A DNA stretch of 35,869 bases from a virus. Below are positions 1 through 34,989 of this stretch, in pieces (positions within the stretch are counted from its first letter, which is position 1; each line of letters starts with the position of its first letter). The position numbers and the translations under genes are program-made. The notes beneath the pieces are model-generated. The model was not told the origin of the DNA. It did no database searches and worked only from the letters and a program-made list of their open reading frames with translations. The stretch lies in the IMG/VR virus record IMGVR_UViG_3300029678_000016, one strand, 5' to 3'.

Positions 1-111
1 CTGCATAGATGTGCATTGATAATATTTTTCGCATCTATGCAGGATAACCTACTGATTTATAGATACTTGCATTGATGCATTGATAAAATGAAGTACTATT
101 AAATATATGAA
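1..111. repeat. Hub repeat copy A, 3' part. It continues from 35771-35869 across the circular junction. Bases 1-72 are identical to 35798-35869.
   Basis: Direct comparison: 1-111 matches 20983-21093 with mismatches only at 74 (g vs a) and 107 (a vs t). It contains an 11-bp inverted repeat, ctgcatagatg (1-11) / catctatgcag (32-42). Confidence 0.95.
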
Positions 112-290
112 TCCTTTTGATGTTGTTAAATAGTGTATATAATTGTATATGCATTTTAACTCCTTCAAAAGGTTTTCGTTGGTAAATATAGGAAAACATC
201 AATGCATCAATGCATCATCAATGCATCGGGCTGAGAATCAACCAGTTACAGCGCATTGGTGATCTATGCATCAATGCATTCATCAATGCA
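12..290. promoter_or_regulatory. Hub 1 iteron array: 9-mer ATC[A/T]ATGCA in opposed orientation around an AT-rich spacer
   Basis: Reverse-orientation copies (TGCAT[A/T]GAT) at 2-10, 12-20, 68-76 and 76-84. Forward copies at 33-41, 198-206, 206-214, 217-225, 262-270, 270-278 and 282-290. The AT-rich stretch at about 85-197 lies between the opposed 17-mers TGCATTGATGCATTGAT (68-84) and ATCAATGCATCAATGCA (198-214). Confidence 0.8.
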
Positions 291-371
291 CGGCTGGAAA
301 TTAGAAATCTTAGATTTAATTTTCACCAATTTGTGGTGTCGTGATTTGCCAGGGCATCTCGATGGCTAGAA

Positions 372-13647: not shown

Positions 13648-14700
13648 ATGGTTTTCAAAAGATTAAGAATAATAGAAGCAGGACCTACCACTAACTACTG
13701 GGGCGACTACGTTAATGGTGAATGGACGGAAGGGAAGACTGTCATCCTCCCCGAATCTCTCGCGTCATTGGTAGCGCTAGGGAATGCTAGACCCATCCAT
13801 GCTCGTAAGACACACAACGGACTAGATATGCTGGATAACTACATCGGAAGTTTTTCCAACTTCGTGGAAGAGGACGGTGTAGTGTATGCGGACCTTACCA
13901 TCTCCGAGGCTGCGTCGGAAGCGTACCCGGACGATGTGAAGTTTATGACAGGTCTGATTGAGAAGGAACCGGAGATGCTCGGAGTATCCGTCTACGATGT
14001 GGATTATAAGGTTTGGAACGAGAAAAACGGGACGTGGGACGTATCCGAATTCGTTGACCTTATTACTTGCGACCTTGTAGGTCTTCCGGCAGCAACGAGT
14101 TCTTTATTTAGTAATAATAATAACAATCAAAATCGTAAATCTATGGGATTTTTTACAAGCCTTTTCTCGTCTTTTGCCGAGGAAAAAGCAAAAGACGAGA
14201 AGAAAGAGGAAAAAGCAAAAGACGAGAAGAAAGAGGAAGAAACCAAGCTGGCTGACCAGATTGTGAGCACAGTAAACGGTGAAAAGATCACCATCAAGGC
14301 AAGCGGAGAAGAAGCTGCGGTTGGTGATGAAGTAGTAAAAGAGGACGGTTCACCTGTCGAAGATGGCGAGGTCATCGTTGATCTTGGCGAAGAAGGAAAA
14401 CTCATCCTCGTGATCAAAGACGGAAAGATCGCTGAATTCAAGGAATACACCGAAGAGGTGAAAACCGAGGAAGAAGTGTCTAAGACTCCGGACGAATTCT
14501 CGAAGCGCCTGCAGGCTGTTGAACAGTCATTAGGCGAGATCAAGACAATGCTGTCACGTCAGACAAAAACTCCTGCCCAACAGGAACGCAATGACGCTAG
14601 CAAGTCTAAACAATCCCCGAACGACAAGACACAGTTGTCTAAGGAGGACAGACGCAGAGCTGCCTACGAAGCTATGCAGAGATATTGCGCAAAGAAGTAA
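13648..14700 (+). CDS. Capsid scaffolding / maturation-protease-like protein
   Basis: Immediately upstream of the capsid gene. The N-terminal domain (FKRLRIIEAGPT ... HARKTHNG ... MLGVSVYD) resembles gpO/S78-type scaffold-proteases. The C-terminal half is Lys/Glu-rich with a 27-bp in-frame tandem repeat. Confidence 0.5.
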   Translation: MVFKRLRIIEAGPTTNYWGDYVNGEWTEGKTVILPESLASLVALGNARPIHARKTHNGLDMLDNYIGSFSNFVEEDGVVYADLTISEAASEAYPDDVKFMTGLIEKEPEMLGVSVYDVDYKVWNEKNGTWDVSEFVDLITCDLVGLPAATSSLFSNNNNNQNRKSMGFFTSLFSSFAEEKAKDEKKEEKAKDEKKEEETKLADQIVSTVNGEKITIKASGEEAAVGDEVVKEDGSPVEDGEVIVDLGEEGKLILVIKDGKIAEFKEYTEEVKTEEEVSKTPDEFSKRLQAVEQSLGEIKTMLSRQTKTPAQQERNDASKSKQSPNDKTQLSKEDRRRAAYEAMQRYCAKK

Positions 14701-17289: not shown

Positions 17290-17868
17290 ATGGCTAAGAG
17301 AAAAACTAAAGATATCCAACCGATGAGAGAATTGGTACAGTTAACGGACAGCGTAGAGATGCTGAAACTGTGCGTGCGGATGACTCATCTGAAACTCGAT
17401 CCTGTATGCCACATGGACCGCGCTTATGCGGAACGCTGGTACAGGGAACACTACATCAACGGTGTGCATGCCCGTTACGTCATGAAGCCGGGGATGTCGA
17501 TCAATCATGTAGGAGACGGCATCGTTTACCGCGCATTCAACTGTACTGACGCGATCGCAGCCCGATTGATGCGCGAGAACAGGGAATACATCAATTATTT
17601 CGAAGACCTTGGCGAATTCGTGCTACCTGGTCAGAGCGTAGTTGAGGATACTCCTACAGTAATCCCGGAAATCGAGGAAGAAGGCGCAGAAACCGAGGAA
17701 GAAGGCGCAGAAACCGAGGAGGAAGGTGCGGAAGACACACCGACGGTGATCCCGGAAACTGAGGATACTCCGAAGGAAGAGGAATCTCCGAAGGAGGAAA
17801 CACCTGCTGCTCCCGAAGATGACAAGGTGCTTGAGGACCTTGAGAAAGAACTGAACGAAGAAAAGTAA
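17290..17868 (+). CDS. Hypothetical protein with an acidic repeat tail
   Basis: 192 aa. The C-terminal third is Glu-rich, with EEEGAET x3 and EDTPTVIPE x2. Confidence 0.45.
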   Translation: MAKRKTKDIQPMRELVQLTDSVEMLKLCVRMTHLKLDPVCHMDRAYAERWYREHYINGVHARYVMKPGMSINHVGDGIVYRAFNCTDAIAARLMRENREYINYFEDLGEFVLPGQSVVEDTPTVIPEIEEEGAETEEEGAETEEEGAEDTPTVIPETEDTPKEEESPKEETPAAPEDDKVLEDLEKELNEEK

Positions 17869-20939: not shown

Positions 20940-21246
20940 ATCTATGCAACATAAATCGCTGCAAATCAGTCTGATGCGAGAGCTGCATAGATGTGCATTG
21001 ATAATATTTTTCGCATCTATGCAGGATAACCTACTGATTTATAGATACTTGCATTAATGCATTGATAAAATGAAGTACTATTAAATATTTGAAAACAGGT
21101 ATATTGTAATTATATATTATCGCACACCCCGTATTTACGTATATTATAGAAAAAAATGCGATTTTATCAATGCATCAATGCATCGGTCTGATTTGCAGTG
21201 AGTTACACAGCATAGATGCCGATTTTCATCTATGCACATCAATGCA
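20940..21246. promoter_or_regulatory. Hub 2 iteron array (same 9-mer family as hub 1)
   Basis: Forward copies at 20940-20948, 21015-21023, 21166-21174, 21174-21182, 21228-21236 and 21238-21246. Reverse copies at 20984-20992, 20994-21002 and 21058-21066, plus a degenerate one at 21050-21058. A palindrome gcatagatg / catctatgc lies at 21210-21218 / 21227-21235. The AT-rich spacer is at about 21067-21165. Confidence 0.8.
20956..21093. repeat. Hub repeat copy B (138 bp)
   Basis: Matches 35771-35869 plus 73-111 with 2 mismatches. Carries the same 11-bp inverted repeat at 20983-20993 / 21014-21024. Confidence 0.95.
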
Positions 21247-21344
21247 CGTCATCTCGTACCACCTGATTATCAGTGAGTTACAGTGAATTGATAGGTTTTC
21301 CATGCTAATAAACGTTAAATACTGAAATTATTTTGTGCAGATTG

Positions 21345-21373: not shown

Positions 21374-21497
21374 TCAGCGTAATCGTAAACCGATAATCAG
21401 ACGTTCAGCCACCTACGATTGGCTGAGGAAATAAGTGTGGTGAACAAAGGACCACTACGGAGATAGACGGACTCGCTGAATTTAAAAACCGAAAGCA

Positions 21498-21998
21498 ATG
21501 GAGAAAAAAGTGAATCTATGTGCGCTCGAAAAGTTTTATTATGATGCTGTAACGGAAGGCATAGCACGCTGCAAGACAGCCATCGAAGCATTTAATAAAT
21601 TTTCGTCCCCATTGCGCCTTACCGTGAAGGAGGTATTTGCAAGGCATATGGTGCTGGAGTTTTTCGGAGAAGAGTTTGAATACCCGATAAAAGACTTCAT
21701 AGTAAAGAATGCCGACCTGTACCATCCTATCTACGAAAGGGCTAGGGAAATAGCGTATGTAGATTTTTTAAGGAGTTATCGAAAACCAAAAAAGTTAATT
21801 GAATTTATGGAGAATCAAGAAAAGAAGTTAGAACTGATCACGGTCAGCGAAGCTGCCCGTATCTTGGACCTTACCGAGAACGCTGTACGGTACAGAGTAA
21901 AACAGGGCTATCTCAATCAATACCGTAACATGAACGGTGCGTTGAGACTCAGCAAAGCGGAAATTACAGAAAAATATTTAACATTTAAAAAACAGTAA
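21498..21998 (+). CDS. DNA-binding protein with a C-terminal excisionase/MerR-like HTH
   Basis: LITVSEAARILDLTENAVRYRVKQGYL is a typical HTH_17-like helix-turn-helix. It is the first gene of arm B. Confidence 0.6.
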   Translation: MEKKVNLCALEKFYYDAVTEGIARCKTAIEAFNKFSSPLRLTVKEVFARHMVLEFFGEEFEYPIKDFIVKNADLYHPIYERAREIAYVDFLRSYRKPKKLIEFMENQEKKLELITVSEAARILDLTENAVRYRVKQGYLNQYRNMNGALRLSKAEITEKYLTFKKQ

Positions 21999-22000
21999 TC

Positions 22001-22744
22001 ATGAAAGTAGAAATCAGTATTGACAGAGAAACAAAAGTGTATGAATTGCAAACCATCGCTGAATTCGCGGCTAACCTGGCGATCCGCAAATCACGTGAAG
22101 AAGAAGGACAACCTGCTGCCGCTCCCGCACCTGCTATGAAACCGAATATCTCAGAAGACAAGAAGAAGTTCGAGGAATTGACCAAAGACATCCCTGGTGT
22201 GAAATCCGAGGAAACCGTAATCGACTCGTCCAGCGAGGCGAACAATGTCGAAGTCATCATTGATGACAAGTCAGCAGTAGAGGAAGTGTTTGACGGAAAC
22301 CAAGAAGCCAAGAAAGCCATCGCTGAGATGTCCGAGAAAGAACTCGCTGCCATGCCTACAGAAAAACTGGTTAAACTCCTTGTCGTAACATACAACGTAG
22401 ACCCGTCCGATTATCCGGGAAAGAATACGAACGCTAAGTTGCGTCGCCTCTTGATGAGCGCAGCTAAGGGAAACCTGGAAGCTCCTGCTCAAGAACCTTA
22501 TGAACAGACCGTAGGGGAAACCAAGGCAGAAGTAGACGAGGAAATGCCGTTCGACAAGGAAATCGCTGAGGAACCGGAAGAAAAGGTTGTCACAATCAAC
22601 ATGTGCCGGGACGAAGCCCGCATCAAGATCAAGAAGGACCGTGAGGCTGTTCTAAGGGTATTCAAGTCTTGCGGATGCTCGACATTCGCTACTCTGAGAG
22701 AAGCAGATTACGCCAAGTTCTACGAAGCCGTAAAAGCCATCTAA
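22001..22744 (+). CDS. Hypothetical acidic protein
   Basis: 247 aa, strongly Glu/Asp-rich. No motif recognised. Confidence 0.4.
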   Translation: MKVEISIDRETKVYELQTIAEFAANLAIRKSREEEGQPAAAPAPAMKPNISEDKKKFEELTKDIPGVKSEETVIDSSSEANNVEVIIDDKSAVEEVFDGNQEAKKAIAEMSEKELAAMPTEKLVKLLVVTYNVDPSDYPGKNTNAKLRRLLMSAAKGNLEAPAQEPYEQTVGETKAEVDEEMPFDKEIAEEPEEKVVTINMCRDEARIKIKKDREAVLRVFKSCGCSTFATLREADYAKFYEAVKAI

Positions 22745-22745
22745 C

Positions 22746-23912
22746 ATGGCGGAAATAAATCATTCAGAAAGGGGACACGCGCTGCTGTCCCCGTCTTCTT
22801 CAGAACGCTGGATGAACTGCACACCGTCTGCCCGGTTAGCCGAGTCGGCAGAAAACAAGTCATCAGAATTCGCGAAAGAAGGGGAATTAGCCCACGAGCT
22901 GGCGCAGCATCTGCTTGAGCTTTGGGACCACGGTCTGTACGACCCCCTGTTTGACGATAAGATGTTACTGCCGGAAACTATATCCTCTTCCAAATACTTC
23001 AGCGAGGAGATGGTGAAAAACGTGAACAGGTACTTGGAGTTCGTCATAAACGAGTTTCATGAGATCAATAAGACTGACGGGAAGGTGGTTCCATATTGGG
23101 AGACTCACGTAAACCTGGATAAGTACGTCAAGGAGTCATTCGGAAGCTGCGATGCAGCTCTTGTAGGAACGAAGACACTCCATATAATCGATCTGAAATA
23201 CGGTGCCGGTATCAAGGTGTCTGCGCAGCGCAATCCGCAGATCATGATGTATGCCCTAGGAGAGCTGCAGACTTGGGACAAGATAGAGACAGTCAAGATG
23301 TCCATTGTGCAGCCGAGACTCGACCATTACGACACTTTCGAGATGTCCGCCAATGACTTGCGCGTTTGGGGAGAGAAAGTCTTAAAACCGAAGGCAGAAG
23401 CAGCATGGGAAGGCAGAGGCGAGCAGAAGATAGGTGGGTGGTGTCAGTTCTGCCCTGTCAGACCGCGATGCCGGGCGCATTTCGAAGCAATCAAGGACGA
23501 CTTTGATGAGGAATGCGAACCGTTGCTCATGACCGAGGAGGAAATCGTCGAGATGATCGGCAAGATAGACAGTTACCGTAGCTGGATCAATTCGTTCGAT
23601 CAGTTCGTCTACCGAGAGGCTATGAAAGGCCAGAGATGGGCTGGATACAAGCTGGTGGAAGGACGGTCCTCCCGGAAGATCACTGACCCCGATAAGGTCC
23701 GTAACGAACTGCTTGACGAATTCCTTGAAGACGAGATCATGAACATCAGTCTGAAGGGGATAACCGATCTTGAGAAACTGTTAGGCAAGAAGATTTTTGC
23801 CGCCCGTTTCGGCAAGTACGTTAAAAGTCAGCCCGGTGCGCCTAAACTCGTACCGGAAAATCACCCCGGAACTGAGTATAACTCATTATCCGACTTTGAT
23901 GTAGAAAGCTAA
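22746..23912 (+). CDS. PD-(D/E)XK nuclease with Cas4-like Cys cluster (DUF2800-like)
   Basis: LLSPSSSERWMNC near the N-terminus, IIDLKYGAGIKV (D-x-K), QIMMYALG, and the CQFCPVRPRC cysteine cluster. Confidence 0.8.
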   Translation: MAEINHSERGHALLSPSSSERWMNCTPSARLAESAENKSSEFAKEGELAHELAQHLLELWDHGLYDPLFDDKMLLPETISSSKYFSEEMVKNVNRYLEFVINEFHEINKTDGKVVPYWETHVNLDKYVKESFGSCDAALVGTKTLHIIDLKYGAGIKVSAQRNPQIMMYALGELQTWDKIETVKMSIVQPRLDHYDTFEMSANDLRVWGEKVLKPKAEAAWEGRGEQKIGGWCQFCPVRPRCRAHFEAIKDDFDEECEPLLMTEEEIVEMIGKIDSYRSWINSFDQFVYREAMKGQRWAGYKLVEGRSSRKITDPDKVRNELLDEFLEDEIMNISLKGITDLEKLLGKKIFAARFGKYVKSQPGAPKLVPENHPGTEYNSLSDFDVES

Positions 23913-23918
23913 TAAAAG

Positions 23919-23993
23919 TTAATAGTTTATTCAAAATTTGGCAAATCAGAACGGACGTTATACCTTTGAGTCATCAAAGTTAAACAAGTAGTA
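23919..23993 (+). promoter_or_regulatory. Conserved promoter-plus-leader cassette, copy 1
   Basis: TTTG at 23937-23940 and TAccTTTG at 23961-23968 with a 20-nt spacer, followed by the conserved CATCAAAGTTAAACAAGTAGTA. Near-identical cassettes lie at 29322 and 33129. Confidence 0.75.
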
Positions 23994-24016
23994 TTAACGA
24001 CTTAAAAACAAGAATC

Positions 24017-24607
24017 ATGGGAAAGAAACTAATCCTAAAAAATGTAAGATTCTCATTCGTGAGAGTATTTGAAGCGGAAGACCGTTTCAACCAAGGCAAA
24101 TCAAAGTACGAAGTAACTATCTTAATCCCGAAGACTGATAAGGAAACTATCAAGAAAGTTGTCGCAGCCATCAAGGAGTTGCAGAAGGAGTATCTTATGG
24201 AACATCCGAAATACAACGGCAAGTTACCGGGAGACCCGTCAAAATGGAATCCTATCAAAGACGGTGACGACAATATCGAATATGACGGATTCGAAGGAAT
24301 GTACTACATCCGTGCATCCCGTAATGAATCTCAGGGTCGTCCGGTTATCATCGACAGGCACAAGCGGCCGATCACGCAGAAAGAGGACTTTTATTCAGGA
24401 TGCTGGGGAGTTGTTTCGATAGATGCCTACTCATTCGATCAGATAGCCAACAAGGGTATCACATTCGGATTGAATGGTGTTCAGAAAGTCAGAGACGACG
24501 AAGCCTTCGGAGGCGGAGGATCGGCTATCAATGACTTCGAAGAAGAGGATGACGATACGGACAATGATCCGATCTTCGATGAACCGGACGATTTACCATC
24601 CAGATAA
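24017..24607 (+). CDS. Single-stranded DNA-binding protein (DUF2815-like)
   Basis: N-terminus ILKNVRFSFVRVFEAE and an acidic C-tail EEEDDDTDNDPIFDEPDDLP. It sits between the DUF2800-like nuclease and the polymerase, as in known replication modules. Confidence 0.7.
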   Translation: MGKKLILKNVRFSFVRVFEAEDRFNQGKSKYEVTILIPKTDKETIKKVVAAIKELQKEYLMEHPKYNGKLPGDPSKWNPIKDGDDNIEYDGFEGMYYIRASRNESQGRPVIIDRHKRPITQKEDFYSGCWGVVSIDAYSFDQIANKGITFGLNGVQKVRDDEAFGGGGSAINDFEEEDDDTDNDPIFDEPDDLPSR

Positions 24608-24699
24608 CAAAGAAAAACTTTTAATTTATAACTTAAATTTTTATTCATTTATTATTAACCGAATTTTATTATTTAACTAAGTAATTGGGTGCAAATGTG

Positions 24700-24736
24700 A
24701 ATAGCGGATGGGGTAGAAGACATCCGCTATTATTTT
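24700..24736 (+). terminator. Intrinsic terminator/attenuator between the SSB and polymerase genes
   Basis: Perfect 11-bp stem aatagcggatg (24700-24710) / catccgctatt (24721-24731) with a 10-nt loop, then ATTTT. It lies 18 nt before the polymerase ATG. Confidence 0.7.
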
Positions 24737-24754
24737 AAAAAGAGAGGACAACAT

Positions 24755-26740
24755 ATGAGAAATGTTTACATAGACTTCGAAACCTATTCCCCCGAACCAA
24801 TCAAGACAGCCGGAGCGTACAGGTACACGGAGCATCCCGATTTCGAAATCCTGCTGATCGGATATGCCGTAGAAGACGGGGAACCGAAGATAATAGACCT
24901 GGTCAACCTAGACGACCCGCAGCCGTTCTTTTCCCTTATCCAGCAGCCGGACGTTCTGATCCATGCCCACAATGCCGCCTTCGAACGATTGTGCCTTCGT
25001 GCCTACGGATATAACATCCCCGCTACCAAGTTCCGCTGCTCTGCTACGAAAGCCCTGTACTGCGGATTCCCCGAATCACTAGGAAAGGTATCAGCAGCCA
25101 TGCATCTGGTAGACGGAAAGCTGGACACAGGCAGCGCATTGATAAAGATATTCTCCGTTCCGCAGAAGGACGGATCACGTATCTATCCGGAAAAATATCC
25201 GCAGAAATGGGAAGAGTTCAAGACCTACCTCAGATACGACGTATTGTCTGAGCGTGAGATCGACCGCAAGCTGGCGCATATCAAGATGCCGGAATCGGAG
25301 ATCGAACTGTACGGGATCGACCAGGACATCAATGACCGCGGGACAATGGTGGATGTCCAGCTAGCCCGGAATGCCGATGCCATCTATACGGAATACTTGA
25401 AGAGGCTGAACGAGAAGATCAAGGCTAAGTACGATATCACGTCACTTAAGTCAAGCAAGCAGATCAGCGCCTTCATCGAAGAGCGTAGCGGGAAGTTCTA
25501 CGAAACGATCAACAAAAACAACATCAATCAGATCATGGAGGAATGCAATGACAAGGACGTTACCCGTGTTCTGACAGCCCGCAAAATCGCCTACAAAACG
25601 TCTATCGCGAAGTATGCTGCCATGCTGAACTGCCTGTGCAAGGACGGATCAGCAAAAGGTCTGTACCGCTTCTACGGAGCTAACCGGACAGGCAGATGGG
25701 CTGGACGCATCGTCCAGCAGCAGAACCTTCCTCAGAACCACCTGGAAGAACTTGAGAGAGTTCGAGAGGACGTGAAGAATATGGACCTTGACGAACTGAT
25801 GATGTTCTACGATAACGTCCCGTCTATCCTGTCACAACTGATCCGTACGGCATTCATCGCCCGTGACAGCTATATCTTCCGGGTAGCCGACTTCTCCGCC
25901 ATCGAAGCCCGTGTGATCGCGGTGCTTGCGAACGAAACGTGGCGAATCGAAACATTCCGGAGAGGCGGTGACATCTACGTAACATCTGCTGCCCGTACCT
26001 TCAACATGAAGGAATCGGAATGTGGAAAAGGGACCCCCTACCGTCAGCAAGGAAAGGTTACAGAGCTAGCTCTAGGCTATGGCGGTTGGGTCGGAGCGAT
26101 CAAGACGATGGACCGCGACGGAGCTATCCCGGAAGAGAATATTAAAAACATCATCTTCAGATGGCGCGATGCTTCGCCGAAAATTGTATCTTTGTGGCGC
26201 ATCTTAGAGGACTCGGCTAAAAGGGCGATCTTGGCGAAGCGGGATGTACCCGTCGATATTGATGGTAAAATTATCTGTCATTTCTATTGGATACCGCAAT
26301 ACCGGACGCTCGCATTGCGCTTGCCATCGGGACGATCCCTGCACTACCCATATGCTTCGATTAAGAAGAAAACGATCCGCTACGACAACGGTGACAGCAA
26401 GGAGATCGAATCAATCCATTATATGGGTCTTGACCAAACGTCCGGGAAGTGGGTGGAACTGGATACATATGGAGGAAAGCTGACCGAAAACCTGGTACAG
26501 GCTGTATCCCGTGACCTGCTGGCAAGCGCAATGAGAAACGTCTTGAGCATCAGCGATGATGGAGAAGTGGGAATCGTAGGTCACATCCATGACGAACTGA
26601 TCACCGAATGCCTGGAGGACTCAGATATAACGCTGGATGATGTCTGCATAGCCATGTCCATATTACCGGATTGGGCAAAGCCGTTCGACATACCTCTAAG
26701 AGCAGAAGGATTTAACAGTTACTTTTATAAAAAAGATTAA
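24755..26740 (+). CDS. Family A DNA polymerase with 3'-5' exonuclease domain
   Basis: Exo motifs IDFETYS, HNAAFERLCL and YLRYDVL. Pol motif A is DFSAIEARV, motif B is RQQGKVTELALGYGG, and motif C is HIHDEL. Confidence 0.93.
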   Translation: MRNVYIDFETYSPEPIKTAGAYRYTEHPDFEILLIGYAVEDGEPKIIDLVNLDDPQPFFSLIQQPDVLIHAHNAAFERLCLRAYGYNIPATKFRCSATKALYCGFPESLGKVSAAMHLVDGKLDTGSALIKIFSVPQKDGSRIYPEKYPQKWEEFKTYLRYDVLSEREIDRKLAHIKMPESEIELYGIDQDINDRGTMVDVQLARNADAIYTEYLKRLNEKIKAKYDITSLKSSKQISAFIEERSGKFYETINKNNINQIMEECNDKDVTRVLTARKIAYKTSIAKYAAMLNCLCKDGSAKGLYRFYGANRTGRWAGRIVQQQNLPQNHLEELERVREDVKNMDLDELMMFYDNVPSILSQLIRTAFIARDSYIFRVADFSAIEARVIAVLANETWRIETFRRGGDIYVTSAARTFNMKESECGKGTPYRQQGKVTELALGYGGWVGAIKTMDRDGAIPEENIKNIIFRWRDASPKIVSLWRILEDSAKRAILAKRDVPVDIDGKIICHFYWIPQYRTLALRLPSGRSLHYPYASIKKKTIRYDNGDSKEIESIHYMGLDQTSGKWVELDTYGGKLTENLVQAVSRDLLASAMRNVLSISDDGEVGIVGHIHDELITECLEDSDITLDDVCIAMSILPDWAKPFDIPLRAEGFNSYFYKKD

Positions 26741-26741
26741 T

Positions 26742-29108
26742 ATGTTGGAGAAGTATCTTATATCAGTTGCAGGGTCCTCCAAGAGCACCAATTGGAAGAG
26801 AAAAACATACACTTGGGAAGCCTTAGTCGAAGAGCTATCGAAGCCCAAGATGGTCGGAAGCGAGACTATGAAAGAGTTCGACAGGCTGGCGAAGTCGGAG
26901 AAGGCGATCCGCAAGGATGTCGGAGGCTTCGTAGGCGGAACGCTAGCAGGCGGAAGACGTACCAAAAACTCAGTAGCAGGCAGATCACTTATCACATTAG
27001 ACGTTGACTACGGAGAGGATGACTTTTTCTTCGGTTTTTCTTTGCAATTCTCATGCGCTGCTGTTATATACGGCACAAGATCAGACCGTCCAGGTAAGCG
27101 GAGGTTTCGTCTTATCATCCCGATGGACCGTGAGATCGATAACCGGGAAGAATATGAAGCAGCCAGCCGGAAGGTAGCGGAGATCATGGGCATCGAACTG
27201 TTCGACCCGACGACATTCCAAGCCGAACGTCTGATGTACTGGGGATCGGTATCCAAGGACCAGGAGTTTTATTTCGAGAGACAGGATGGAGACGCGCTGA
27301 ACGTAGACGAACTACTCGGTATGTACGGAGGAGAGGACGCGTGGAAAGACGTACGCCTATGGGCGTTTACTGATAACGAGGAGCGCACGATCCACAGCAC
27401 TGTCTCAGAGGCTGGGGAACCGACCGACAAACCGGGGGTCATCGGTGCATTCTGCCGGGTATACACCGTACAGGAAGCTATCGAAAAGTATCTGTCTGAC
27501 GTTTATGAGCTCTGCGATCATGATCGCTACACCTATAAGGGAGGATCGTCCGCAGCCGGAATGATCGTGTACGATGACAAGTTCGCCTACTCCCACCATT
27601 CCACCGACCCGATCGGAGACGGTCATGTATACAATGCTTACGACCTTGTGCGCATCCACTTGTTCGGTCATCTCGGAAAGGAAGAGAGCGAACACGCGAT
27701 GGCTAGACTTGTACAGGAGGATGAGCCATGCCTCCGCGAGTTAGTCGCTGCTAATGACTGCATGGATGACTTCGATGATGTATCCGATGAATCAGTAGAA
27801 GAGACCGAGGAAGCGCTGGATTGGGACCTTGACAGCAAGGGACGCAAGGAGGTGACCATCCGCAACTTCGTCAACGCCTTCCGCACCGATCCCCTGCTGA
27901 ACAATCTGCTCGCGTATGACCAATTCCGAGGAACCATAGTGTATACCCGTAAGCCGTTTTTCGACAGCAGCAAGGACAAAGGAGACATATTCGATGACAC
28001 CGCAGAGTCAATCATCCGCAACCGGATCGAGACAGCCCACGGGATTTACTCCACCGGGAAGATGTGCGATGCCATCGAATATGTGTCCAATAAAAACGGC
28101 TTCCACCCCATCAAGACTTTTCTCGATTCGCTTGTGTGGGACGGAAAGCCGCGTATCGACACGTTCCTTCAGACCTACATGGGTGCTGAGGATTCAATCT
28201 ACGTAAGAGAGGCGTTCCGCAAGATGCTGGTAGCTGCGGTTGCCCGCATATACGAACCAGGAACTAAGTTCGACACCGCTCTGATAATGGTATCACATCA
28301 AGGTGCGGGTAAGTCAACGCTGGTCCAGCGACTGTCGAAGGGGTGGTTCAACGACTCCATGACATCGTTGGAAGGCACGAAGGCTTACGAGTCGATCCAG
28401 AATGCCTGGCTGGTGGAGCTAGCCGAGTTGTCAGCCATCAAGAAGTCAGACATCGAGGTGATGAAGAACTTCCTGTCCAAACGGGAGGATACATACCGTG
28501 CTGCCTACGCCAAGCGTATCAAGACGCATAGACGGCAATGCGTATTCTTCGGATCAACCAACGAGGATGAGTTTCTCAAGGACCAGACAGGTAACAGGCG
28601 TTTCTTCCCGGTCGCGGTGAAGTGGAATGCCAACAGCCACTACCTGTTCGAAAAATCCTTTGAAAGCACCATCGACCAGCTATGGGCTGAGGCTAAAGAA
28701 CTGTACGATGCAGGTGAGAGTCTGATACTGTCGAAGACAGCAGAAAACATAGCTAACGGTATTCGCGAAGAATACACGGAGGTGTCTTCGATGCACGGTC
28801 TGATCGAGAAGTTCGTCAACATGAAATTCCCGAAGAACTGGGACGACTGGGTATACGCTGACCGGAGAGACTTCGTTGACGGGATAGGCGTGTTCGAAGA
28901 AGGCACGGAGACCAGGACAGGTTTCTGCACCTTCGAGATATGGTGTGACGGTCTCGGTCTGCCTCGGAAAGACTTTACGGTAGCCAAGGCTAGAGAGCTT
29001 GCGGGGTCTCTCAAGAGGCTGGGATTCGTCCGGAACGGGCAGAGAAACGTTAATATATACGGCAGACAGTCAATTTACACGCGTATTATTTCGGATACCG
29101 AGGATTAA
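26742..29108 (+). CDS. Primase (AEP-like N-terminus) fused to a VirE/D5-like SF3 helicase
   Basis: ITLDVDYG (DxD), YSHHSTDP, P-loop HQGAGKST, Walker B WLVELAEL, and GNRRFFPV. Confidence 0.85.
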   Translation: MLEKYLISVAGSSKSTNWKRKTYTWEALVEELSKPKMVGSETMKEFDRLAKSEKAIRKDVGGFVGGTLAGGRRTKNSVAGRSLITLDVDYGEDDFFFGFSLQFSCAAVIYGTRSDRPGKRRFRLIIPMDREIDNREEYEAASRKVAEIMGIELFDPTTFQAERLMYWGSVSKDQEFYFERQDGDALNVDELLGMYGGEDAWKDVRLWAFTDNEERTIHSTVSEAGEPTDKPGVIGAFCRVYTVQEAIEKYLSDVYELCDHDRYTYKGGSSAAGMIVYDDKFAYSHHSTDPIGDGHVYNAYDLVRIHLFGHLGKEESEHAMARLVQEDEPCLRELVAANDCMDDFDDVSDESVEETEEALDWDLDSKGRKEVTIRNFVNAFRTDPLLNNLLAYDQFRGTIVYTRKPFFDSSKDKGDIFDDTAESIIRNRIETAHGIYSTGKMCDAIEYVSNKNGFHPIKTFLDSLVWDGKPRIDTFLQTYMGAEDSIYVREAFRKMLVAAVARIYEPGTKFDTALIMVSHQGAGKSTLVQRLSKGWFNDSMTSLEGTKAYESIQNAWLVELAELSAIKKSDIEVMKNFLSKREDTYRAAYAKRIKTHRRQCVFFGSTNEDEFLKDQTGNRRFFPVAVKWNANSHYLFEKSFESTIDQLWAEAKELYDAGESLILSKTAENIANGIREEYTEVSSMHGLIEKFVNMKFPKNWDDWVYADRRDFVDGIGVFEEGTETRTGFCTFEIWCDGLGLPRKDFTVAKARELAGSLKRLGFVRNGQRNVNIYGRQSIYTRIISDTED

Positions 29109-29237
29109 TGCGTATCTTTGCGTCACTGAATATTGAGAGTTATAATTCGTATCTTGTACTACTGATAAGAAGATTTTAGGCTGAGAGAAGCCAACACCCC
29201 ACTTCTTTTATGTTTGTCAAATGCACTTATATTTTTT

Positions 29238-29279
29238 CCTCCCGTATCCCGCTGTGAAGCCCGATACGGGGGGGTTTTT
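29238..29279 (+). terminator. Intrinsic terminator ending the SSB-polymerase-primase transcription unit
   Basis: 11-bp stem (29238-29248 / 29263-29273, including one G-U pair) with a 14-nt loop, followed by TTTTT at 29275-29279. Confidence 0.8.
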
Positions 29280-29321
29280 CATTAATGGGTGTTAATACGG
29301 GCTTCTGTCCACTAACAAACG

Positions 29322-29394
29322 TTAATAATTTGTTCAAAATTTGGCAAATTCAGAAAGCTGCCATATATTTGCATCATCAAAGTTAAACAAGTAA
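29322..29394 (+). promoter_or_regulatory. Conserved promoter-plus-leader cassette, copy 2
   Basis: TTTG at 29340-29343 and TAtaTTTG at 29364-29371, followed by CATCAAAGTTAAACAAGTAATA. Confidence 0.75.
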
Positions 29395-29409
29395 TAAAAA
29401 TATAAGATC

Positions 29410-29610
29410 ATGAAGACAATTACAGTAAAGGTTAAGTTTAAGATCACTGAATTAAACAAAACAAAAAGCATTAAGATAGGGATAGAATTCCCGGAAAATA
29501 AATTCCCCTGTTTCTCTGAATTAGTAAACAAGGTGTACGCTATGAGAGATCCCCGATTAAACAAGCTATTCAACGAAGGATACATTATCGGAGTAGAAGA
29601 GGTACTATAA
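29410..29610 (+). CDS. Hypothetical small protein
   Basis: 66 aa. The start context AAGATCATGAA is shared with neighbouring small ORFs. Confidence 0.5.
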   Translation: MKTITVKVKFKITELNKTKSIKIGIEFPENKFPCFSELVNKVYAMRDPRLNKLFNEGYIIGVEEVL

Positions 29611-29625
29611 TACTAATAATTAACC

Positions 29626-29643
29626 GGGGTGGGAAACCGCCCC
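29626..29643 (+). promoter_or_regulatory. Intercistronic GAAA-tetraloop hairpin
   Basis: 7-bp stem ggggtgg / ccgcccc closing a gaaa loop. There is no U-tract, so it is not a classical terminator. Confidence 0.4.
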
Positions 29644-29658
29644 TAAAATAATAAAATC

Positions 29659-29856
29659 ATGAAAACATTTGAGATCAACAATGAAACAATAACCATCGAG
29701 AAAATAGGCTACGGGCTGTATATATTAACGGGTATGGGCACATCAGTGCCTTGTAATGACTCCGAGATATGGGATTGGTGCGATGACGAAGAAAACAAAG
29801 AGAAACATCTGGCAGCTAAGGAAACCGCATACAGACTGCTTGTAAACAATTTGTAA
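29659..29856 (+). CDS. Hypothetical small protein
   Basis: 65 aa. Start context AAAATCATGAA. Confidence 0.5.
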   Translation: MKTFEINNETITIEKIGYGLYILTGMGTSVPCNDSEIWDWCDDEENKEKHLAAKETAYRLLVNNL

Positions 29857-29867
29857 AAAATAAGATC

Positions 29868-29957
29868 ATGAAAAAGGTAATAAAGACAATACTTAACGCG
29901 ATCGGATTCGTTCTGATCTGCATATTAATAACCGCTTATATACTATTCGTATGCTGA
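29868..29957 (+). CDS. Small hydrophobic peptide, 29 aa (not in the ORF track)
   Basis: Manual translation gives MKKVIKTILNAIGFVLICILITAYILFVC. It shares the AAGATCATGAA start context, and its stop overlaps the next ATG (ATGCTGA). Confidence 0.45.
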   Translation: MKKVIKTILNAIGFVLICILITAYILFVC

Positions 29958-30136
29958 TAATTAATAGAGTAACATTGATTAAGGGCGATTCTAAGGAATC
30001 CATCAACAAGGGTCCGATAGCCCTTGAAATCATGAATGTAGAGCAGTTTCGAGAACATGTAAAGTTGCTGTTCAAGTGCGACAGGGTATTACTAGATTAT
30101 ACGGAGGAAGAAGATGAAACAGAAAACAAGGATTAG
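29951..30136 (+). CDS. Hypothetical small protein
   Basis: 61 aa with an acidic C-tail. Confidence 0.45.
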   Translation: MLIINRVTLIKGDSKESINKGPIALEIMNVEQFREHVKLLFKCDRVLLDYTEEEDETENKD

Positions 30137-30377
30137 CGCAGAGATGGACGGTCGCTATCACGTACAGGAGCTGGGAGGAGACAACTTGTACCACACGATC
30201 CCCGGAGGAATATGTGAGACGAAAGGAGAGGCAAGACGAATTCGCAGGGCTTACAAGGCTGTGGCGAATTACGTAAACAAATTTAACAATAAGTTCTGCG
30301 GAATGCATACCATCCATCTTCCGAACTTTGACCCATCTGATTATCAGAAGAGAGATGAGGAAGAACGAGACAAGTGA
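30114..30377 (+). CDS. Hypothetical small protein
   Basis: 87 aa. No motif recognised. Confidence 0.45.
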   Translation: MKQKTRISAEMDGRYHVQELGGDNLYHTIPGGICETKGEARRIRRAYKAVANYVNKFNNKFCGMHTIHLPNFDPSDYQKRDEEERDK

Positions 30378-30666
30378 GAAGGTTTTCGAAAGAGAACTAT
30401 CACAGTACGTTGAGGAAAGAGGCGGGATGGCGGTGAAGCTGCTGTCCCAATTCTTCAAGGGATTGCCGGACAGGATGTTTCTCATACCAATTGGAAAGGT
30501 CCTGTTCGTAGAATTTAAGAGCACTGGGAAGAAGCCCACGCCCATTCAGAGGTGGGTACACAGGAAACTCGATGAAATCGGATTCCCTGTTTATATAGTG
30601 GACAGCCCGGAAAGCTACTATCTTGTAACAGACATTATAGATGACATAATTAAAAGATCTAGATGA
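30328..30666 (+). CDS. VRR-NUC domain nuclease (start may be the ATG at 30355)
   Basis: GLPDRMFLIPIGKVLFVEFKSTGKKPTPIQ matches the PD...E-x-K core of VRR-NUC. Confidence 0.75.
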   Translation: MTHLIIRREMRKNETSEKVFERELSQYVEERGGMAVKLLSQFFKGLPDRMFLIPIGKVLFVEFKSTGKKPTPIQRWVHRKLDEIGFPVYIVDSPESYYLVTDIIDDIIKRSR

Positions 30667-30986
30667 CAATGGAAAAAGAAGAGATAAGAATAGAATTTAC
30701 AAAGAAATTGCTCGATATGGGATTCGTAAAGGCGGGTGACTTCGCGCTGACGAAAAGAATGGATTCCAGGAGGATGACCATATACTTCCGGGGGATCGGG
30801 ATATTCGTAGAATTCTCAAGCGTTTTTAACGTAGTATCGAGTATGTGCGTTCCATATGAGCACACGAAGGGTGACTTTAATATGTTTCTGATCATCGTCA
30901 GATATTCGCTTAAAGAGGTGGCGATCAAGGGCTATTCCGAAGAGATGGAGAATTCCTTGAAAAACCTTTTGCCTTACAATGAGTAG
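30663..30986 (+). CDS. Hypothetical protein
   Basis: 107 aa. ATGA overlap with the upstream gene. Confidence 0.45.
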   Translation: MTMEKEEIRIEFTKKLLDMGFVKAGDFALTKRMDSRRMTIYFRGIGIFVEFSSVFNVVSSMCVPYEHTKGDFNMFLIIVRYSLKEVAIKGYSEEMENSLKNLLPYNE

Positions 30987-31007
30987 TTATTATACTTACA
31001 GAAACTT

Positions 31008-31442
31008 ATGGAAGTAGATTTCAACAAAATACTAAAACTCGACCGCATCAAGCTGTTTGTCGATGTGGTCACCAAGATGGCAAACGACACCCCGGCAGGA
31101 GGATATGCCATCGGAGTGGCAATAAAGGCATTGCCGGAAAACATCCAGCAGTTCCTGCTATCTGAGATACCCGACAAGGTTCTCCGCAGGGAGTACGCCC
31201 GCAGAGAGCTGGGAAACCTGGAAGACGCTTGTCTGACGCAGGGGAAGGACGAACTGTTCGAGACCTTCCGATCGGAGATATACCAGAATGACAAGCTGCA
31301 CACTGTAGCCAATCTCCTCGGAACCGACTGTCTGCGTCCCGATCTTGTTGAGACCGCAGAAGCCCTGGTCAAGCTGTTCCCGGAAAGATGGACCATTCAA
31401 GAATTATCTGATGAAATATACGCTAAAAGTTTAGGATTGTGA
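31008..31442 (+). CDS. Hypothetical protein
   Basis: 144 aa. No motif recognised. Confidence 0.45.
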   Translation: MEVDFNKILKLDRIKLFVDVVTKMANDTPAGGYAIGVAIKALPENIQQFLLSEIPDKVLRREYARRELGNLEDACLTQGKDELFETFRSEIYQNDKLHTVANLLGTDCLRPDLVETAEALVKLFPERWTIQELSDEIYAKSLGL

Positions 31443-31738
31443 CAGCAGAAGAAAGAGTTAAGGTTCGCGACTGGGCACGTCGTAACTTAGGAAAAGAAGT
31501 AACGATCATTGATATTAATATCGCCATAAGAACCTCAAAAGCAATGGTAGTGGGCTATTCGGAGTTTAGGGTCTTTGGAGAGGAAGTTACTAATGTGCTG
31601 GTGAGTTTTACGAACCACGCGGGATGGGGACCTAGTGGTTTAGACTTGACTGATCATGTGTTTGTACATTCTCCGCTGAACGTCTCTCTTTGGATGGTAA
31701 ACCTGTATGATATAGAGGAATATGTTGAACAGGAGTAA
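31439..31738 (+). CDS. Hypothetical protein (GTG start)
   Basis: 99 aa. GTGA overlap with the upstream stop. Confidence 0.4.
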   Translation: MTAEERVKVRDWARRNLGKEVTIIDINIAIRTSKAMVVGYSEFRVFGEEVTNVLVSFTNHAGWGPSGLDLTDHVFVHSPLNVSLWMVNLYDIEEYVEQE

Positions 31739-33122
31739 CTTGCATAAGTATCAGTTACAGGGGGTGGAGCACATCAAGGATAATCCGGAATGTGCTCTAT
31801 TCCTTGATATGGGCTTGGGGAAGACCGTAACCACGCTGACAGCCCTGTCCGATCTCATCCGGTATTTCGAAATCGAGAAGGCGCTGATAGTCGCGCCCAA
31901 GCGCGTTGCCGAGGTAACGTGGGCTGACGAGGTATCCAACTGGGCGCATCTTAATGACCTGCGGGTGTCCGTGATCGCGGGGAATGCCAAGAACCGTGCC
32001 GCTGCTGCCCGTGCCGATGCCGACATATACACGGTAGGTCGTGATAACCTGGTGTGGCTGCTGGAGAATTTCGGTGGCGTTAAACTCCCGTATGACTGCA
32101 TCGTGGTGGACGAACTGTCCTCGTTTAAGAATCATCAGTCAGAGAGATTCAAGGCGATGAAGAAGATCAGACGATATGCCAACCGGATAATCGGTCTGAC
32201 GGGTACTCCGGCACCTAACGGGCTGATAGACCTGTGGGCGCAGATGTTCGTGATCGATGGCGGAAAACGGCTAGGTCGGTCCATCACAGACTACCGGGCT
32301 AACTACTTCAGACCGGGCGCTCAGAATGGCGGGATCGTCTACAACTACAAGCCCCGCGAGAATACCGAGCAGATACTCTCCGAGAAGATATCCGACATCA
32401 CCCTGTCGATGAAGGCAGTCGATTACCTGGACATGCCTGAGGTGAACTACATCTATGACAAGGTGGTCCTGTCCGGCAAGGAGATGTCCATGTACAAGGA
32501 ATTCGAGAAGGATCAGATAATCTCGCTACTGGGCAACGGAGATGTTGAAACCATTACTGCCATGACTGCCGCAGCCCTGTCCAACAAGCTGCTCCAATTC
32601 GCTGGCGGAGCGATCTATGATGCTGAGAGAAACGTGCACCGTGTGAGCGATGCCAAGATCGAAGCCTTGTGCGAGATGGTGGAGGCATTGAACGGTGCTC
32701 CTGTCCTCATCGCCTACAACTTCCTCCATGAAGCCCACCGCATCGAGAAAGCCCTGTCCAAACTGAAGCCTGTCCGCATCGGAGGTGACTCTAGAGGAGA
32801 CAGTAATCAGATCATGCGTGACTGGAATGCCGGGAAGATCAAGGTGCTGATCGCACACCCTGCATCTGTAGGTCACGGGCTGAACCTTCAGAAAGGCGGA
32901 AACAACATTATATGGTTCGGGGTGACGTGGAACCTTGAGTTATATCAGCAGTTCAATGCACGGCTGTGGCGGCAGGGTCAGACCAAGCCCGTGTTCATCC
33001 ACCACATAGTATCCCGGCACACCCTTGATGAACGTGTCGTCAACTCCCTGCAAGGCAAGTCTAGCACACAGGATGCGTTAATAGATGCTATCAAAGACAT
33101 AGTTTCGCAGTATAAACGTTAA
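31722..33122 (+). CDS. SNF2/DEAD-like helicase
   Basis: Motif I LDMGLGKT, motif II VVDELSSFKN, motif III LTGTPAPN, then HPASVGHGLNLQ and QQFNARLWRQGQ. Confidence 0.9.
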   Translation: MLNRSNLHKYQLQGVEHIKDNPECALFLDMGLGKTVTTLTALSDLIRYFEIEKALIVAPKRVAEVTWADEVSNWAHLNDLRVSVIAGNAKNRAAAARADADIYTVGRDNLVWLLENFGGVKLPYDCIVVDELSSFKNHQSERFKAMKKIRRYANRIIGLTGTPAPNGLIDLWAQMFVIDGGKRLGRSITDYRANYFRPGAQNGGIVYNYKPRENTEQILSEKISDITLSMKAVDYLDMPEVNYIYDKVVLSGKEMSMYKEFEKDQIISLLGNGDVETITAMTAAALSNKLLQFAGGAIYDAERNVHRVSDAKIEALCEMVEALNGAPVLIAYNFLHEAHRIEKALSKLKPVRIGGDSRGDSNQIMRDWNAGKIKVLIAHPASVGHGLNLQKGGNNIIWFGVTWNLELYQQFNARLWRQGQTKPVFIHHIVSRHTLDERVVNSLQGKSSTQDALIDAIKDIVSQYKR

Positions 33123-33128
33123 TGAGTA

Positions 33129-33204
33129 TTAATAATTTGTTCAAAATTTGGCAAAACCGAAAACCTGCTGTATATTTGCATCATCAAAGTTAAACAAGTA
33201 GTAA
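33129..33204 (+). promoter_or_regulatory. Conserved promoter-plus-leader cassette, copy 3
   Basis: TTTG at 33147-33150 and TAtaTTTG at 33171-33178, followed by CATCAAAGTTAAACAAGTAGTA. Confidence 0.75.
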
Positions 33205-33223
33205 CAATTAAGATTAAACAGTC

Positions 33224-33637
33224 ATGGAAAAGCTTATTACATTATTAGTTCTAGTTTTGGCGTTCACAGCGAACGCAATGTCACAGATCACAACTGCCGG
33301 GAAACCGGAAACAATCGCATCGTTCCGCATGGGAACATGCAAGCTGGTGAAGACCCGGGATCAATACAAGATCAGCGGGCAGACCAAAGACAACAGGTTC
33401 CTTAGGATGAACGTGGAGCTGGGCGACAAGGAGAAGGCAGCAGCTCTTCTCCGGTCGATGATAGATTACGAGGCAAGCCGGAACGAACAGGTAGCCTTGA
33501 ACAACTCTACAGAAAACTTTGCCATCTGGGTAGGCACGGCATTCGGAGGCTGGGAGATCACAGATACCGTAGGTGCTGACCGGATAGCAGTGAGTAAGGG
33601 AGAATTGAAGAAAATGCTAAAAGCCATAGAGAAATGA
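33224..33637 (+). CDS. Secreted protein (signal peptide)
   Basis: The N-terminus MEKLITLLVLVLAFTANA looks like a cleavable signal peptide. Confidence 0.55.
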   Translation: MEKLITLLVLVLAFTANAMSQITTAGKPETIASFRMGTCKLVKTRDQYKISGQTKDNRFLRMNVELGDKEKAAALLRSMIDYEASRNEQVALNNSTENFAIWVGTAFGGWEITDTVGADRIAVSKGELKKMLKAIEK

Positions 33638-33906
33638 AAACAATGATTAAAAAGATTATCGAATGGTTCGGAAAGTCGAACCGCTACAAGCACTTACTTT
33701 ATGCTATCGTCGTATCATATTTAGCGGGATTCGTGTTCACCTGCGGAGTTGCTGCGGGTATGGAGTTCAAGGACAGCCAATGGGGTGGCAAATGGGATTG
33801 GATAGACTTCTGGCTGACCGTGGCTGGCGCGGCTGTCGGAGGAACACTGAGAGTAATTACACTTAAGGCACTTGACTTATATTGGCTGGTGGGCGCATGG
33901 CTGTAA
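33634..33906 (+). CDS. Small membrane protein with two TM segments
   Basis: Hydrophobic helices LLYAIVVSYLAGFVFTCGVAAG and FWLTVAGAAVGGTL. ATGA overlap with the upstream gene. Confidence 0.55.
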   Translation: MKTMIKKIIEWFGKSNRYKHLLYAIVVSYLAGFVFTCGVAAGMEFKDSQWGGKWDWIDFWLTVAGAAVGGTLRVITLKALDLYWLVGAWL

Positions 33907-34319
33907 TTATTTCTGACACAGAATACAGTGCTGCTAGAGCTACTCTAGAGCACCACAGAGCTAAAGGCTGGATGACCGAGGCTGAGTATAACGCCAGGCT
34001 GGCAGAACTTGATGAAGCCTATATCACCGGACTGGAAGAAGAGCGGGGATACGGCAATCGTCAGTATAGGATGCAGCAGTTCGAACGTATGGAAGAGGCG
34101 CAGCGCAGGATGCGCGAGGCGATAGGCAAGAGAGGCCGTTTCGGTGTGAAACTCATGGAAAAGGGAGACACCGGAGATTACGTGATCGCCCGTATGGAGA
34201 ATGGCGTGACAATGCAGAAGATCATCCTGTCACCGCTTGAAGCCCGGCTGCTGGCTTCCGAGATATTATCAAAAGTGAAACCAATCAAGAGAAAGAAAAA
34301 GTCATGGAATATCAAGTAA
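33897..34319 (+). CDS. Hypothetical soluble helical protein
   Basis: The ORF track starts at a TTG (33882). The in-frame ATG at 33897 is more likely. Confidence 0.45.
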   Translation: MAVIISDTEYSAARATLEHHRAKGWMTEAEYNARLAELDEAYITGLEEERGYGNRQYRMQQFERMEEAQRRMREAIGKRGRFGVKLMEKGDTGDYVIARMENGVTMQKIILSPLEARLLASEILSKVKPIKRKKKSWNIK

Positions 34320-34888: not shown

Positions 34889-34989
34889 AACCAAGTGAGA
34901 TAATAATCGGAACAATCCTCGCAGCCCTTGCGGGGATTTTCCTTGGAACGTTCATAGTAGGAGTAGTAACCATATTAACAGAGATATGA
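34885..34989 (+). CDS. Small TM peptide, 34 aa (internal start of track ORF 34768..34989)
   Basis: ATGA overlaps at both ends. Sequence MKPSEIIIGTILAALAGIFLGTFIVGVVTILTEI. Confidence 0.45.
   Translation: MKPSEIIIGTILAALAGIFLGTFIVGVVTILTEI

Follow-up and report, generated by a model that had tools for sequence, protein, structure and literature searches.

Layout of the window and of hub 1

The window analysed here (the whole 35,869-bp stretch of IMG/VR virus record IMGVR_UViG_3300029678_000016) begins inside a dense array of short repeats, referred to hereafter as hub 1, which the original prediction had read as an iteron-type replication origin or, alternatively, as an operator array controlling a promoter at 372-403. 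The window ends overlap exactly by 72 bp (35798-35869 is identical to 1-72), and we therefore treat the window as a circular assembly of ~35,797 bp that was opened inside hub 1. The Bacteroides phages BT2, BF1-2 and BF1-4 are ~84% identical to it at the nucleotide level, and its gene order is common to the wider “alpha cluster” of B. thetaiotaomicron phages (PMC12697093; PMC12694917); judged by its sequence, the window phage is a lytic Bacteroides siphophage, a relative of BT2 and BF1-2. The + strand carries all genes, which fall into two modules, each headed by a promoter:

372-403, + strand: Bacteroides-type promoter TTTG-N19-TACCTTTG of the packaging/structural module, downstream of hub 1 and outside it
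429-20907, + strand: packaging, structure and lysis module, starting with the small and large terminase genes
429-1040, + strand: small terminase gene, with hub 1 immediately upstream
21337-21344, + strand: -7 box TACCTTTG of the early/replication module promoter, downstream of a second hub (hub 2), with an imperfect -33 box
21498-35513, + strand: early functions and replication module

Within positions 1-300, eleven copies of a 9-mer (ATCWATGCA) had been predicted, with opposed 17-mers around an AT-rich spacer of ~110 bp. All of these are present: four reverse copies (2, 12, 68, 76) and seven forward copies (33, 198, 206, 217, 262, 270, 282), the 17-mers TGCATTGATGCATTGAT at 68-84 and ATCAATGCATCAATGCA at 198-214, and a spacer (85-197) of 113 bp with 76.1% AT, as against 52% for the genome. 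The repeats thus stand as described, but the limits do not, since the window edge cuts the hub, whose start on the circular genome lies at ~35767. Hub 1 is built up as follows, A denoting the 9-mer iterons and B a second type of site:

35767-35797 plus 1-290, on the circular genome: hub 1
35767-35869, no strand: leftmost part of hub 1, of which 35798-35869 is the overlap repeating 1-72
35767-35797, reverse: B-type site TAACTCGCTGCAAATCAG
2-20, - strand: two reverse A iterons, ATCTATGCA and ATCAATGCA, 10 bp apart
33-41, + strand: single forward A iteron in the left arm, a position also filled in hub 2 (21015) and in the putative origins of distant relatives
45-57, - strand: match to the bend-site consensus of integration host factor (IHF) type, WATCARNNNNTTR, left arm
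68-84, - strand: tandem reverse iteron pair with an 8-bp period, left edge of the AT-rich centre
85-197, no strand: AT-rich centre, 113 bp, 76% AT, the proposed melting site
198-225, + strand: three forward A iterons (starts 198, 206, 217), right edge of the centre
225-250, + strand: forward B-type site, including an IHF-like match AATCAACCAGTTA at 236-248
262-290, + strand: three further forward A iterons (starts 262, 270, 282)

The 9-mer is strikingly confined to such arrays. A count across the genome, proposed as a check by the original prediction, gives 23 exact matches against 0.68 expected (none of 100 shuffles reaches 23), and three locations hold them all: 2-290 (11 copies), 20940-21246 (9 copies) and 35799-35838 (3 copies), the last being the assembly-overlap duplicate of 2-41. 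Equal abundance in coding DNA, which would have spoken against a specific role, is not seen; the coding DNA of the window contains no exact copy, and copies with one mismatch occur outside the hubs at about the chance level (~19 versus 17.6). Matches to the IHF-type consensus are enriched as well (11 versus 2.6 expected, five unique ones lying within the hubs), and a Bacteroides IHF/HU-like protein may bind at these positions, which are symmetric in the arms. Of all 60-bp and 100-bp windows of the genome, the centres of the two hubs rank second and third for duplex instability. The least stable stretch of all (24587-24687, 81-93% AT) lies between the single-strand-binding and polymerase genes and carries no iterons.

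Small open reading frames annotated or detectable over the hub (BT2 gp25, BF1-4 gp1, and 35-202 on the minus strand of the window) were rejected as coding because neither their position nor their frame is conserved. Scans of the hubs for E. coli-type sigma-70 promoters and terminators returned background levels, that consensus not being relevant to Bacteroides promoters, and a “terminator” match at 200-228 is merely the iteron tandem. A search of the whole window against Rfam, in which no family reached threshold, gave no indication that the hub holds a known RNA element.

A paralogous hub at the head of the replication module

The array of the original prediction is real, and it is one of two paralogous units of ~330 bp. 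The second lies between the two modules:

20940-21246, no strand: hub 2, paralogue of hub 1
20940, forward: outlying iteron
20984 and 20994, reverse: two iterons
21015, forward: single iteron
21050-21066, reverse: iteron pair, with one mismatch in the left copy
21067-21165: centre, 99 bp, 77% AT
21166-21182, forward: iteron pair
21228 and 21238, forward: two iterons

Nine exact and four one-mismatch iterons are found in hub 2, compared with 11 exact copies in hub 1, and the site order of the two agrees along an alignment of ~330 bp. From left to right this order runs through a reverse B site, two reverse iterons spaced by 10 bp, a forward iteron, an IHF-like match and the tandem reverse pair, continuing past the AT-rich centre to the tandem forward pair, a forward B-type/IHF-like site and further forward iterons. 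Array, layout and duplication are all directly observed. Within the window genome the left 142 bp of the hubs are 98-99% identical; orthologous hubs of different genomes (0.86-0.89 identity) are nevertheless closer than paralogous ones (0.70-0.77), and we therefore conclude that the hub duplication is old and that the left arm has been homogenised recently.

A number of “complete” records of ~21 kb extend exactly between hubs 1 and 2 and contain the structural module only (BF1-4, PQ571261, 21,110 bp, our L002; IMG/VR contigs L009, L013, L015, L018 and L022, 20,948-21,164 bp). Rather than real genomes, these appear to be pieces of assemblies that end at the ~142-bp hub repeat, the near-identical repeat breaking assemblies and giving rise to false “complete” 21-kb genomes in GenBank and IMG/VR. 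Similar assembly trouble has been described for BT24 in a paper that names a “repetitive gene 21/22 intergenic space” solely as an assembly problem (PMC12697093).

Both hubs sit ~85-90 bp upstream of a module-head promoter (372-403 and ~21337). The promoter predicted at 372-403 agrees with the Bacteroides consensus TTTG-N19-TAnnTTTG, a pattern with five matches in the window versus 0.63 expected, and the -7 box at 21337-21344 is conserved in BT2, BF1-2, BT24 and BC669P1. Neither hub itself contains a Bacteroides-consensus promoter.

Relatives keep both hubs and change the repeat

Two hubs with a common iteron and layout are found in eight genomes from five clades of Bacteroides/Phocaeicola phages. 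BT2 and BF1-2 have both hubs with the same repeat as the window (20 IMG/VR relatives likewise have hub 1 with this repeat), whereas the more distant clades have two hubs at the same two module boundaries, in the same layout, each clade with a repeat of its own:

window, BT2 and BF1-2: repeat ATCWATGCA, left-arm tandem TGCATTGATGCATTGAT
BT24 and BT638P3: repeat ATCTATCCA, left-arm tandem TGGATAGATGGATAGATG
BC669P1: repeat ATCTATGACA, left-arm tandem of 9-bp period
BU183P2: repeat ATCTGGTCA, left-arm tandem ATGACCAGATGACCAGAT
BV741P1: repeat TGTTCCGACA

Within any one genome, the repeats of hub 1 and hub 2 are always the same. Two clades with unlike repeats have B. thetaiotaomicron as a common host (ATCWATGCA in BT2 versus ATCTATCCA in BT24), and the binder should for this reason be encoded by the phage and not by the host. 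A 17-mer scan of IMG/VR returned the window clade plus scattered single chance matches and was uninformative.

A Rep-type primase-helicase as candidate reader of the iterons

The replication module encodes a helix-turn-helix (HTH) protein, a DUF2800 exonuclease, a DUF2815 single-strand-binding protein, a family-A polymerase and a primase-helicase, together with a VRR-NUC nuclease and an SNF2 helicase. The small terminase and the primase-helicase are among the DNA-handling proteins common to the five clades. The small terminase displays no region-specific divergence that tracks the repeat, which does not support a binder role; the primase-helicase has the following organisation:

26742-29108, + strand: primase-helicase gene, encoding a VapE/Rep-type helicase preceded by a PrimPol domain; proposed iteron-reading initiator
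28839-29105, + strand: C-terminal domain (residues ~700-788), predicted to be a winged helix with a beta-hairpin at its end

Residues 379-700 are homologous to SaPI1 Rep1 (PDB 7PDS_A, E 1e-70), a helicase of the Staphylococcus aureus pathogenicity islands (SaPIs), and the protein matches the Pfam family VapE-like_dom (E 2e-76). An AlphaFold2 model of residues 380-788 (mean predicted local distance difference test score, pLDDT, 87.3) superposes on 7PDS in Foldseek over 422-435 columns (TMq 0.77-0.80, E ~1e-35), aligning over almost the whole of that structure, including C-terminal helices 351-358 and 368-380 and the hairpin 383-402 (model numbering).

Conservation is lowest in the last ~110 residues (mean identity 0.27-0.33 versus 0.54-0.67 in the core), whose variation goes together with that of the iterons. 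The window, BT2 and BF1-2 have an identical C-terminal tail as well as a common repeat; BT24 and BT638P3 have another repeat and another tail, both common to the pair; and the primase-helicases of BV741P1 and BU183P2, whose repeats differ, are 62% identical outside the C-terminal domain and 32% inside it. This co-variation of iteron and protein is again a direct observation, from which, together with the L102/L104 pair described below, we propose that the C-terminal domain sets iteron specificity.

Arrays of the same layout adjoin distant helicase genes

Among 80 IMG/VR loci with homologous primase-helicases, at least 21 have a lineage-specific 8-mer array, in both orientations, which starts no further than ~110 bp past the primase-helicase stop codon. 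The layout is that of the hubs, in that reverse sites come first, followed by one forward site or a pair of them; a tandem reverse pair and a tandem forward pair then enclose ~90 bp of AT-rich DNA. Two of these loci, the prophage-like contigs L102 and L104, share 98.5% identity over 12.3 kb. Of the 788 residues of their primase-helicases, 10 are not the same, nine of them among the last 22, and every iteron TGTAGACA of L102 has become TGGTAACA in L104, with the AT-rich centre and flanks kept. The exchanged segment is thus compact:

L102 12300-12640, L104 12300-12650: swapped cassette, comprising the last 22 codons and all iterons

At the level of sequence, the pair presents as a clean natural swap of origin specificity.

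Comparison with known origins

The closest known systems are the pri-rep origins of SaPIs and other phage-inducible chromosomal islands (PICIs). SaPI Reps are self-loading initiator helicases whose C-terminal winged helix reads short iterons, and their origins comprise 6-12 iterons around an AT-rich centre, with at least two iterons per side facing in opposite directions (PMC9371898); the same layout has been described for Gram-negative PICI pri-rep origins (PMC6092414). The likeness extends to a homologous Rep-family VapE-like helicase (PDB 7PDS, 7OLA), whose C-terminal winged helix is a prediction in the window protein, to short lineage-specific iterons in two sets flanking an AT-rich centre, to their number (11 in hub 1), and to the opposed iterons on each side (the reverse pair at 68-84 and the forward pair at 198-214, likewise in hub 2); it may also include an iteron specificity that tracks the C-terminal domain. 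One difference is that the primase is fused to the helicase, as in SaPI5. Further differences are that the window belongs to a lytic phage and not to a satellite island, that its iterons are 8-9 bp long instead of 5-6 bp, that extra conserved B/IHF-like sites are present, and that the proposed origin is not directly downstream of rep (29109-29409, immediately past the window primase-helicase, contains no iterons) and exists in two copies at the heads of transcription modules.

The two-copy arrangement recalls satellite phage P4, in which ori plus a second element, crr, are reportedly read by the alpha primase-helicase. Alpha is a single primase-helicase polypeptide with a C-terminal DNA-binding domain, and the same octamer iteron, in direct and inverted copies, occurs in two cis regions kilobases apart; crr is a partial copy, an auxiliary element, and alpha bridges ori and crr. 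Two separate cis regions with the same iteron and one primase-helicase are therefore common to both systems, but alpha comes from another helicase branch (its Pfam family, PF03288, did not come up among the families matched by the window protein) and both hubs are complete, each with two arms and a centre. Bacillus phage SPP1, whose oriL and oriR are said to be bound by the replisome organiser G38P, offers a second parallel as a lytic siphophage with two distant origin regions, the same boxes beside AT-rich DNA and one phage initiator; it differs in that G38P is unrelated and recruits a DnaB-type helicase via a loader, that oriL lies inside the initiator gene, and that the box layout is not the same. 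With the iteron origins of plasmids and lambdoid phages (RepA/TrfA/pi and lambda O; reviewed in PMC4980987), the hubs have in common repeated initiator sites beside an AT-rich unwinding element and a specificity that co-evolves with the initiator. Those iterons are, however, direct repeats of 17-22 bp on one side of the unwinding element, and are read by initiators that are no helicases themselves and rely on the loading of host DnaB.

Origins in which iterons serve a primase-helicase of Rep or P4 type are already known. New is the version carried by the Bacteroides phages, which lies away from the initiator gene and is duplicated, both complete copies keeping their place at the module heads throughout a whole phage family; the longer iterons and the extra conserved sites are new too. 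The literature searched contains no paper that describes replication origins of these phages or interprets the hubs.

Proposed function of the hubs

Taken together, these comparisons favour hub 1 being one of two paralogous iteron-type replication origins that were duplicated and moved to the module heads, to which we assign a probability of roughly 0.7; the iterons are most likely recognised by the phage's own primase-helicase. The origin half of the original prediction is thereby supported indirectly, on several lines (the Rep homologue, the layout, the helicase-adjoining arrays, and the co-variation of the iterons with the C-terminal wing).

Drawing on sequence, predicted structure and comparison for binding, melting, origin activity and the role of the two copies, we infer the following sequence of events. 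The primase-helicase would bind the 9-bp iterons via its C-terminal winged helix and, with the iterons of the two arms pointing in opposite directions, assemblies on both arms would melt the AT-rich centre of ~100-113 bp, possibly assisted by IHF-like bend sites in the arms. One helicase ring would be loaded in each direction; the PrimPol domain would then prime, and the phage family-A DNA polymerase extend. A strong outward promoter lies just downstream of each proposed origin, and negative supercoiling behind RNA polymerase could aid opening.

Several observations weigh against this interpretation. The helicase gene is separated from the hubs by ~5.5 kb on its upstream side and ~6.7 kb on its downstream side, unlike the arrangement in SaPIs/PICIs and at the distant loci; two complete copies per genome are unusual for Rep iteron origins; and the 8-9-bp iterons exceed the penta- and hexamers of SaPIs. 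The clean swap (L102/L104) comes from a distant lineage, and the co-variation of iteron and tail within the Bacteroides clades is correlative, whole genomes diverging together. The GC skew is monotonic across the genome and uninformative for origin placement, because all genes are on one strand. Finally, the conserved position upstream of module-head promoters makes a transcriptional role possible, alone or in addition.

The two copies could be redundant origins (as for SPP1 oriL/oriR), a cooperating pair (as for P4 ori/crr) or a means of coupling replication to transcription. A more elaborate reading, which we consider unlikely, holds that the hubs are not redundant but a coupled pair, bridged by the initiator as ori and crr are by P4 alpha, with the circular genome split into 21-kb structural and 15-kb replication loops, such that occupancy would gate the module-head promoters and tie the early-to-late switch to the start of replication.

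Alternative readings

The hubs could instead be operator or enhancer arrays, through which a phage transcription factor, such as the 166-amino-acid HTH_17 protein, co-regulates the promoters at 372-403 and ~21337; this could mean that early transcription is shut off and late transcription turned on. Both hubs are directly upstream of module-head promoters in all five clades, a small HTH protein is encoded by the first gene after hub 2 in three of them, and the second, more conserved site type (B) could serve another protein. Against this, the iteron nearest to the 372-403 promoter is 82 bp upstream of its -33 box and the array reaches to about -400; the spacing from hub to promoter is not conserved (BT2 and BF1-2 have a 32-bp insertion, BT638P3 ~170 bp of tandem repeats), leaving no fixed helical phasing; an early and a late promoter would have an identical upstream layout; and three further promoter-like repeats inside the replication module (D1, described below) lack iterons. 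Arrays of the same layout also follow primase-helicase genes elsewhere, co-varying with the helicase tail, and are found where no module-head promoter exists. We therefore do not favour the operator half of the original prediction, and judge it unlikely.

Nor does the HTH protein (21498-21998), put forward there as the first candidate binder, fit the distribution of the hubs. It consists of an N-terminal domain fused to an HTH_17 domain (split in BT24 and BC669P1 into two adjacent genes, of 101 or 112 and of 62 amino acids), with no sequence match in the PDB and a Pfam HTH_17 match below cut-off. In BV741P1 and BU183P2, where both hubs persist, neither the protein nor its N-terminal domain is detectable, so that the protein is rejected as a universal binder; its recognition helix, moreover, is nearly unchanged between clades with unlike repeats. 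That it binds the hubs is probably wrong. A 247-amino-acid protein (22001-22744) is likewise unlikely to be a sequence-specific binder, being acidic and of low complexity, without family matches. This protein evolves fast (34% identity to its BT24 counterpart) and contains a HeH/SAP-like motif, PGKNTNAKLRRLL, and a small conserved C-terminal domain; its positional counterparts in other clades have long low-complexity repeats.

Very improbable, to our mind, is that the hubs are pac sites, at which the small terminase binds repeats flanking a central cut region for headful packaging, in the manner of SPP1 pacL/pacC/pacR. Hub 1 does lie immediately upstream of the small terminase gene, the SPP1 pac layout also has repeats flanking a bent or AT-rich centre, and the large terminase groups with Terminase_3-type enzymes, which mark headful packagers. 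Circular assembly of the genomes would fit circular permutation (PMC12697093). The replication module, however, is headed by a full second copy, 21 kb away and remote from the terminase genes, as against the single site of an SPP1-like pac; the distant arrays adjoin the primase-helicase gene and not terminase genes; the iterons co-vary with the helicase tail; and single-copy clade-specific repeats at 35529-35607 are a better candidate for pac or a late-regulator site.

Least probable of all is that the hubs bind a host protein such as DnaA, as host-initiator-dependent origins or host-factor sinks, which we reject on host and motif grounds: although the BT24/BT638P3 repeat (cTATCCAC) resembles the DnaA box (TTATCCACA, or TTATNCACA) at 7-8 of 9 positions at some sites, and IHF-like matches are enriched in the hubs, the B. 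thetaiotaomicron phages BT2 and BT24 use unlike repeats, the window repeat fits TTATNCACA at only 5-6 of 9 positions, its frequent A variant at position 4 breaks the fit, and the last two box positions are not conserved.

Significance

Of the lytic phages that infect human gut Bacteroides, those of the alpha cluster (proposed family “Bacteroiduroviridae”) are some of the most frequently isolated. A putative initiator-origin pair of naturally varied specificity provides a handle for origin mapping and building blocks for Bacteroides phage engineering, and plasmids bearing a hub might titrate the initiator and confer phage resistance. The conserved placement of two copies at module heads raises the question of replication-transcription coupling.

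Other repeats and intergenic elements

An 80-nt repeat, D1, occurs three times in the replication module (23919-23998, 29322-29401 and 33129-33208; 75-89% identical, with a shared leader). Each copy has a perfect Bacteroides promoter pattern (TTTGGCAAA...TAnnTTTG) and no iterons, and D1 repeats are probably internal (middle) promoters of this module.

Close to the late promoter, a box CTCGATGGCTAGAAT at 359-373 overlaps the -33 region. It is present in ~7 tandem copies (TTCGATGGAACTAGGAAT) in BT638P3 (L004 16970-17150) and in two in BT24, and is a likely regulator site of the late promoter, separate from the iterons.

Upstream of hub 1 only, 35529-35607 consists of 2.8 repeats of a 28-bp unit, AATTTGGTCCAAATTTATAAATTAGCTC, with internal palindromes; relatives have other clade-specific repeats in its place, and a minus-strand match to the Bacteroides promoter pattern lies within the repeats at 35538-35569. 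These are the repeats that we regard, from their sequence and position, as a candidate pac or late-regulator site.

The 5' leader of the early operon (~100 nt, ~21395-21497) contains the hairpins CAGCCA..TGGCTG and GTGGT..ACCAC. Tandem copies of it, two in BT24 and ~4 in BT638P3, are found in relatives (L005 20565-21300; L004 37571-38230 plus 1-242), and the single copy of the window folds modestly better than shuffled sequences (z = -1.8).

In-frame tandem repeats occur in coding DNA at 14179-14246 (27 bp), 17668-17733 (21 bp) and 34483-34522 (15 bp), in structural and late-module genes, and their length varies at the same genes in relatives; a 9-bp repeat in gene 16 has been mentioned previously (PMC12697093).

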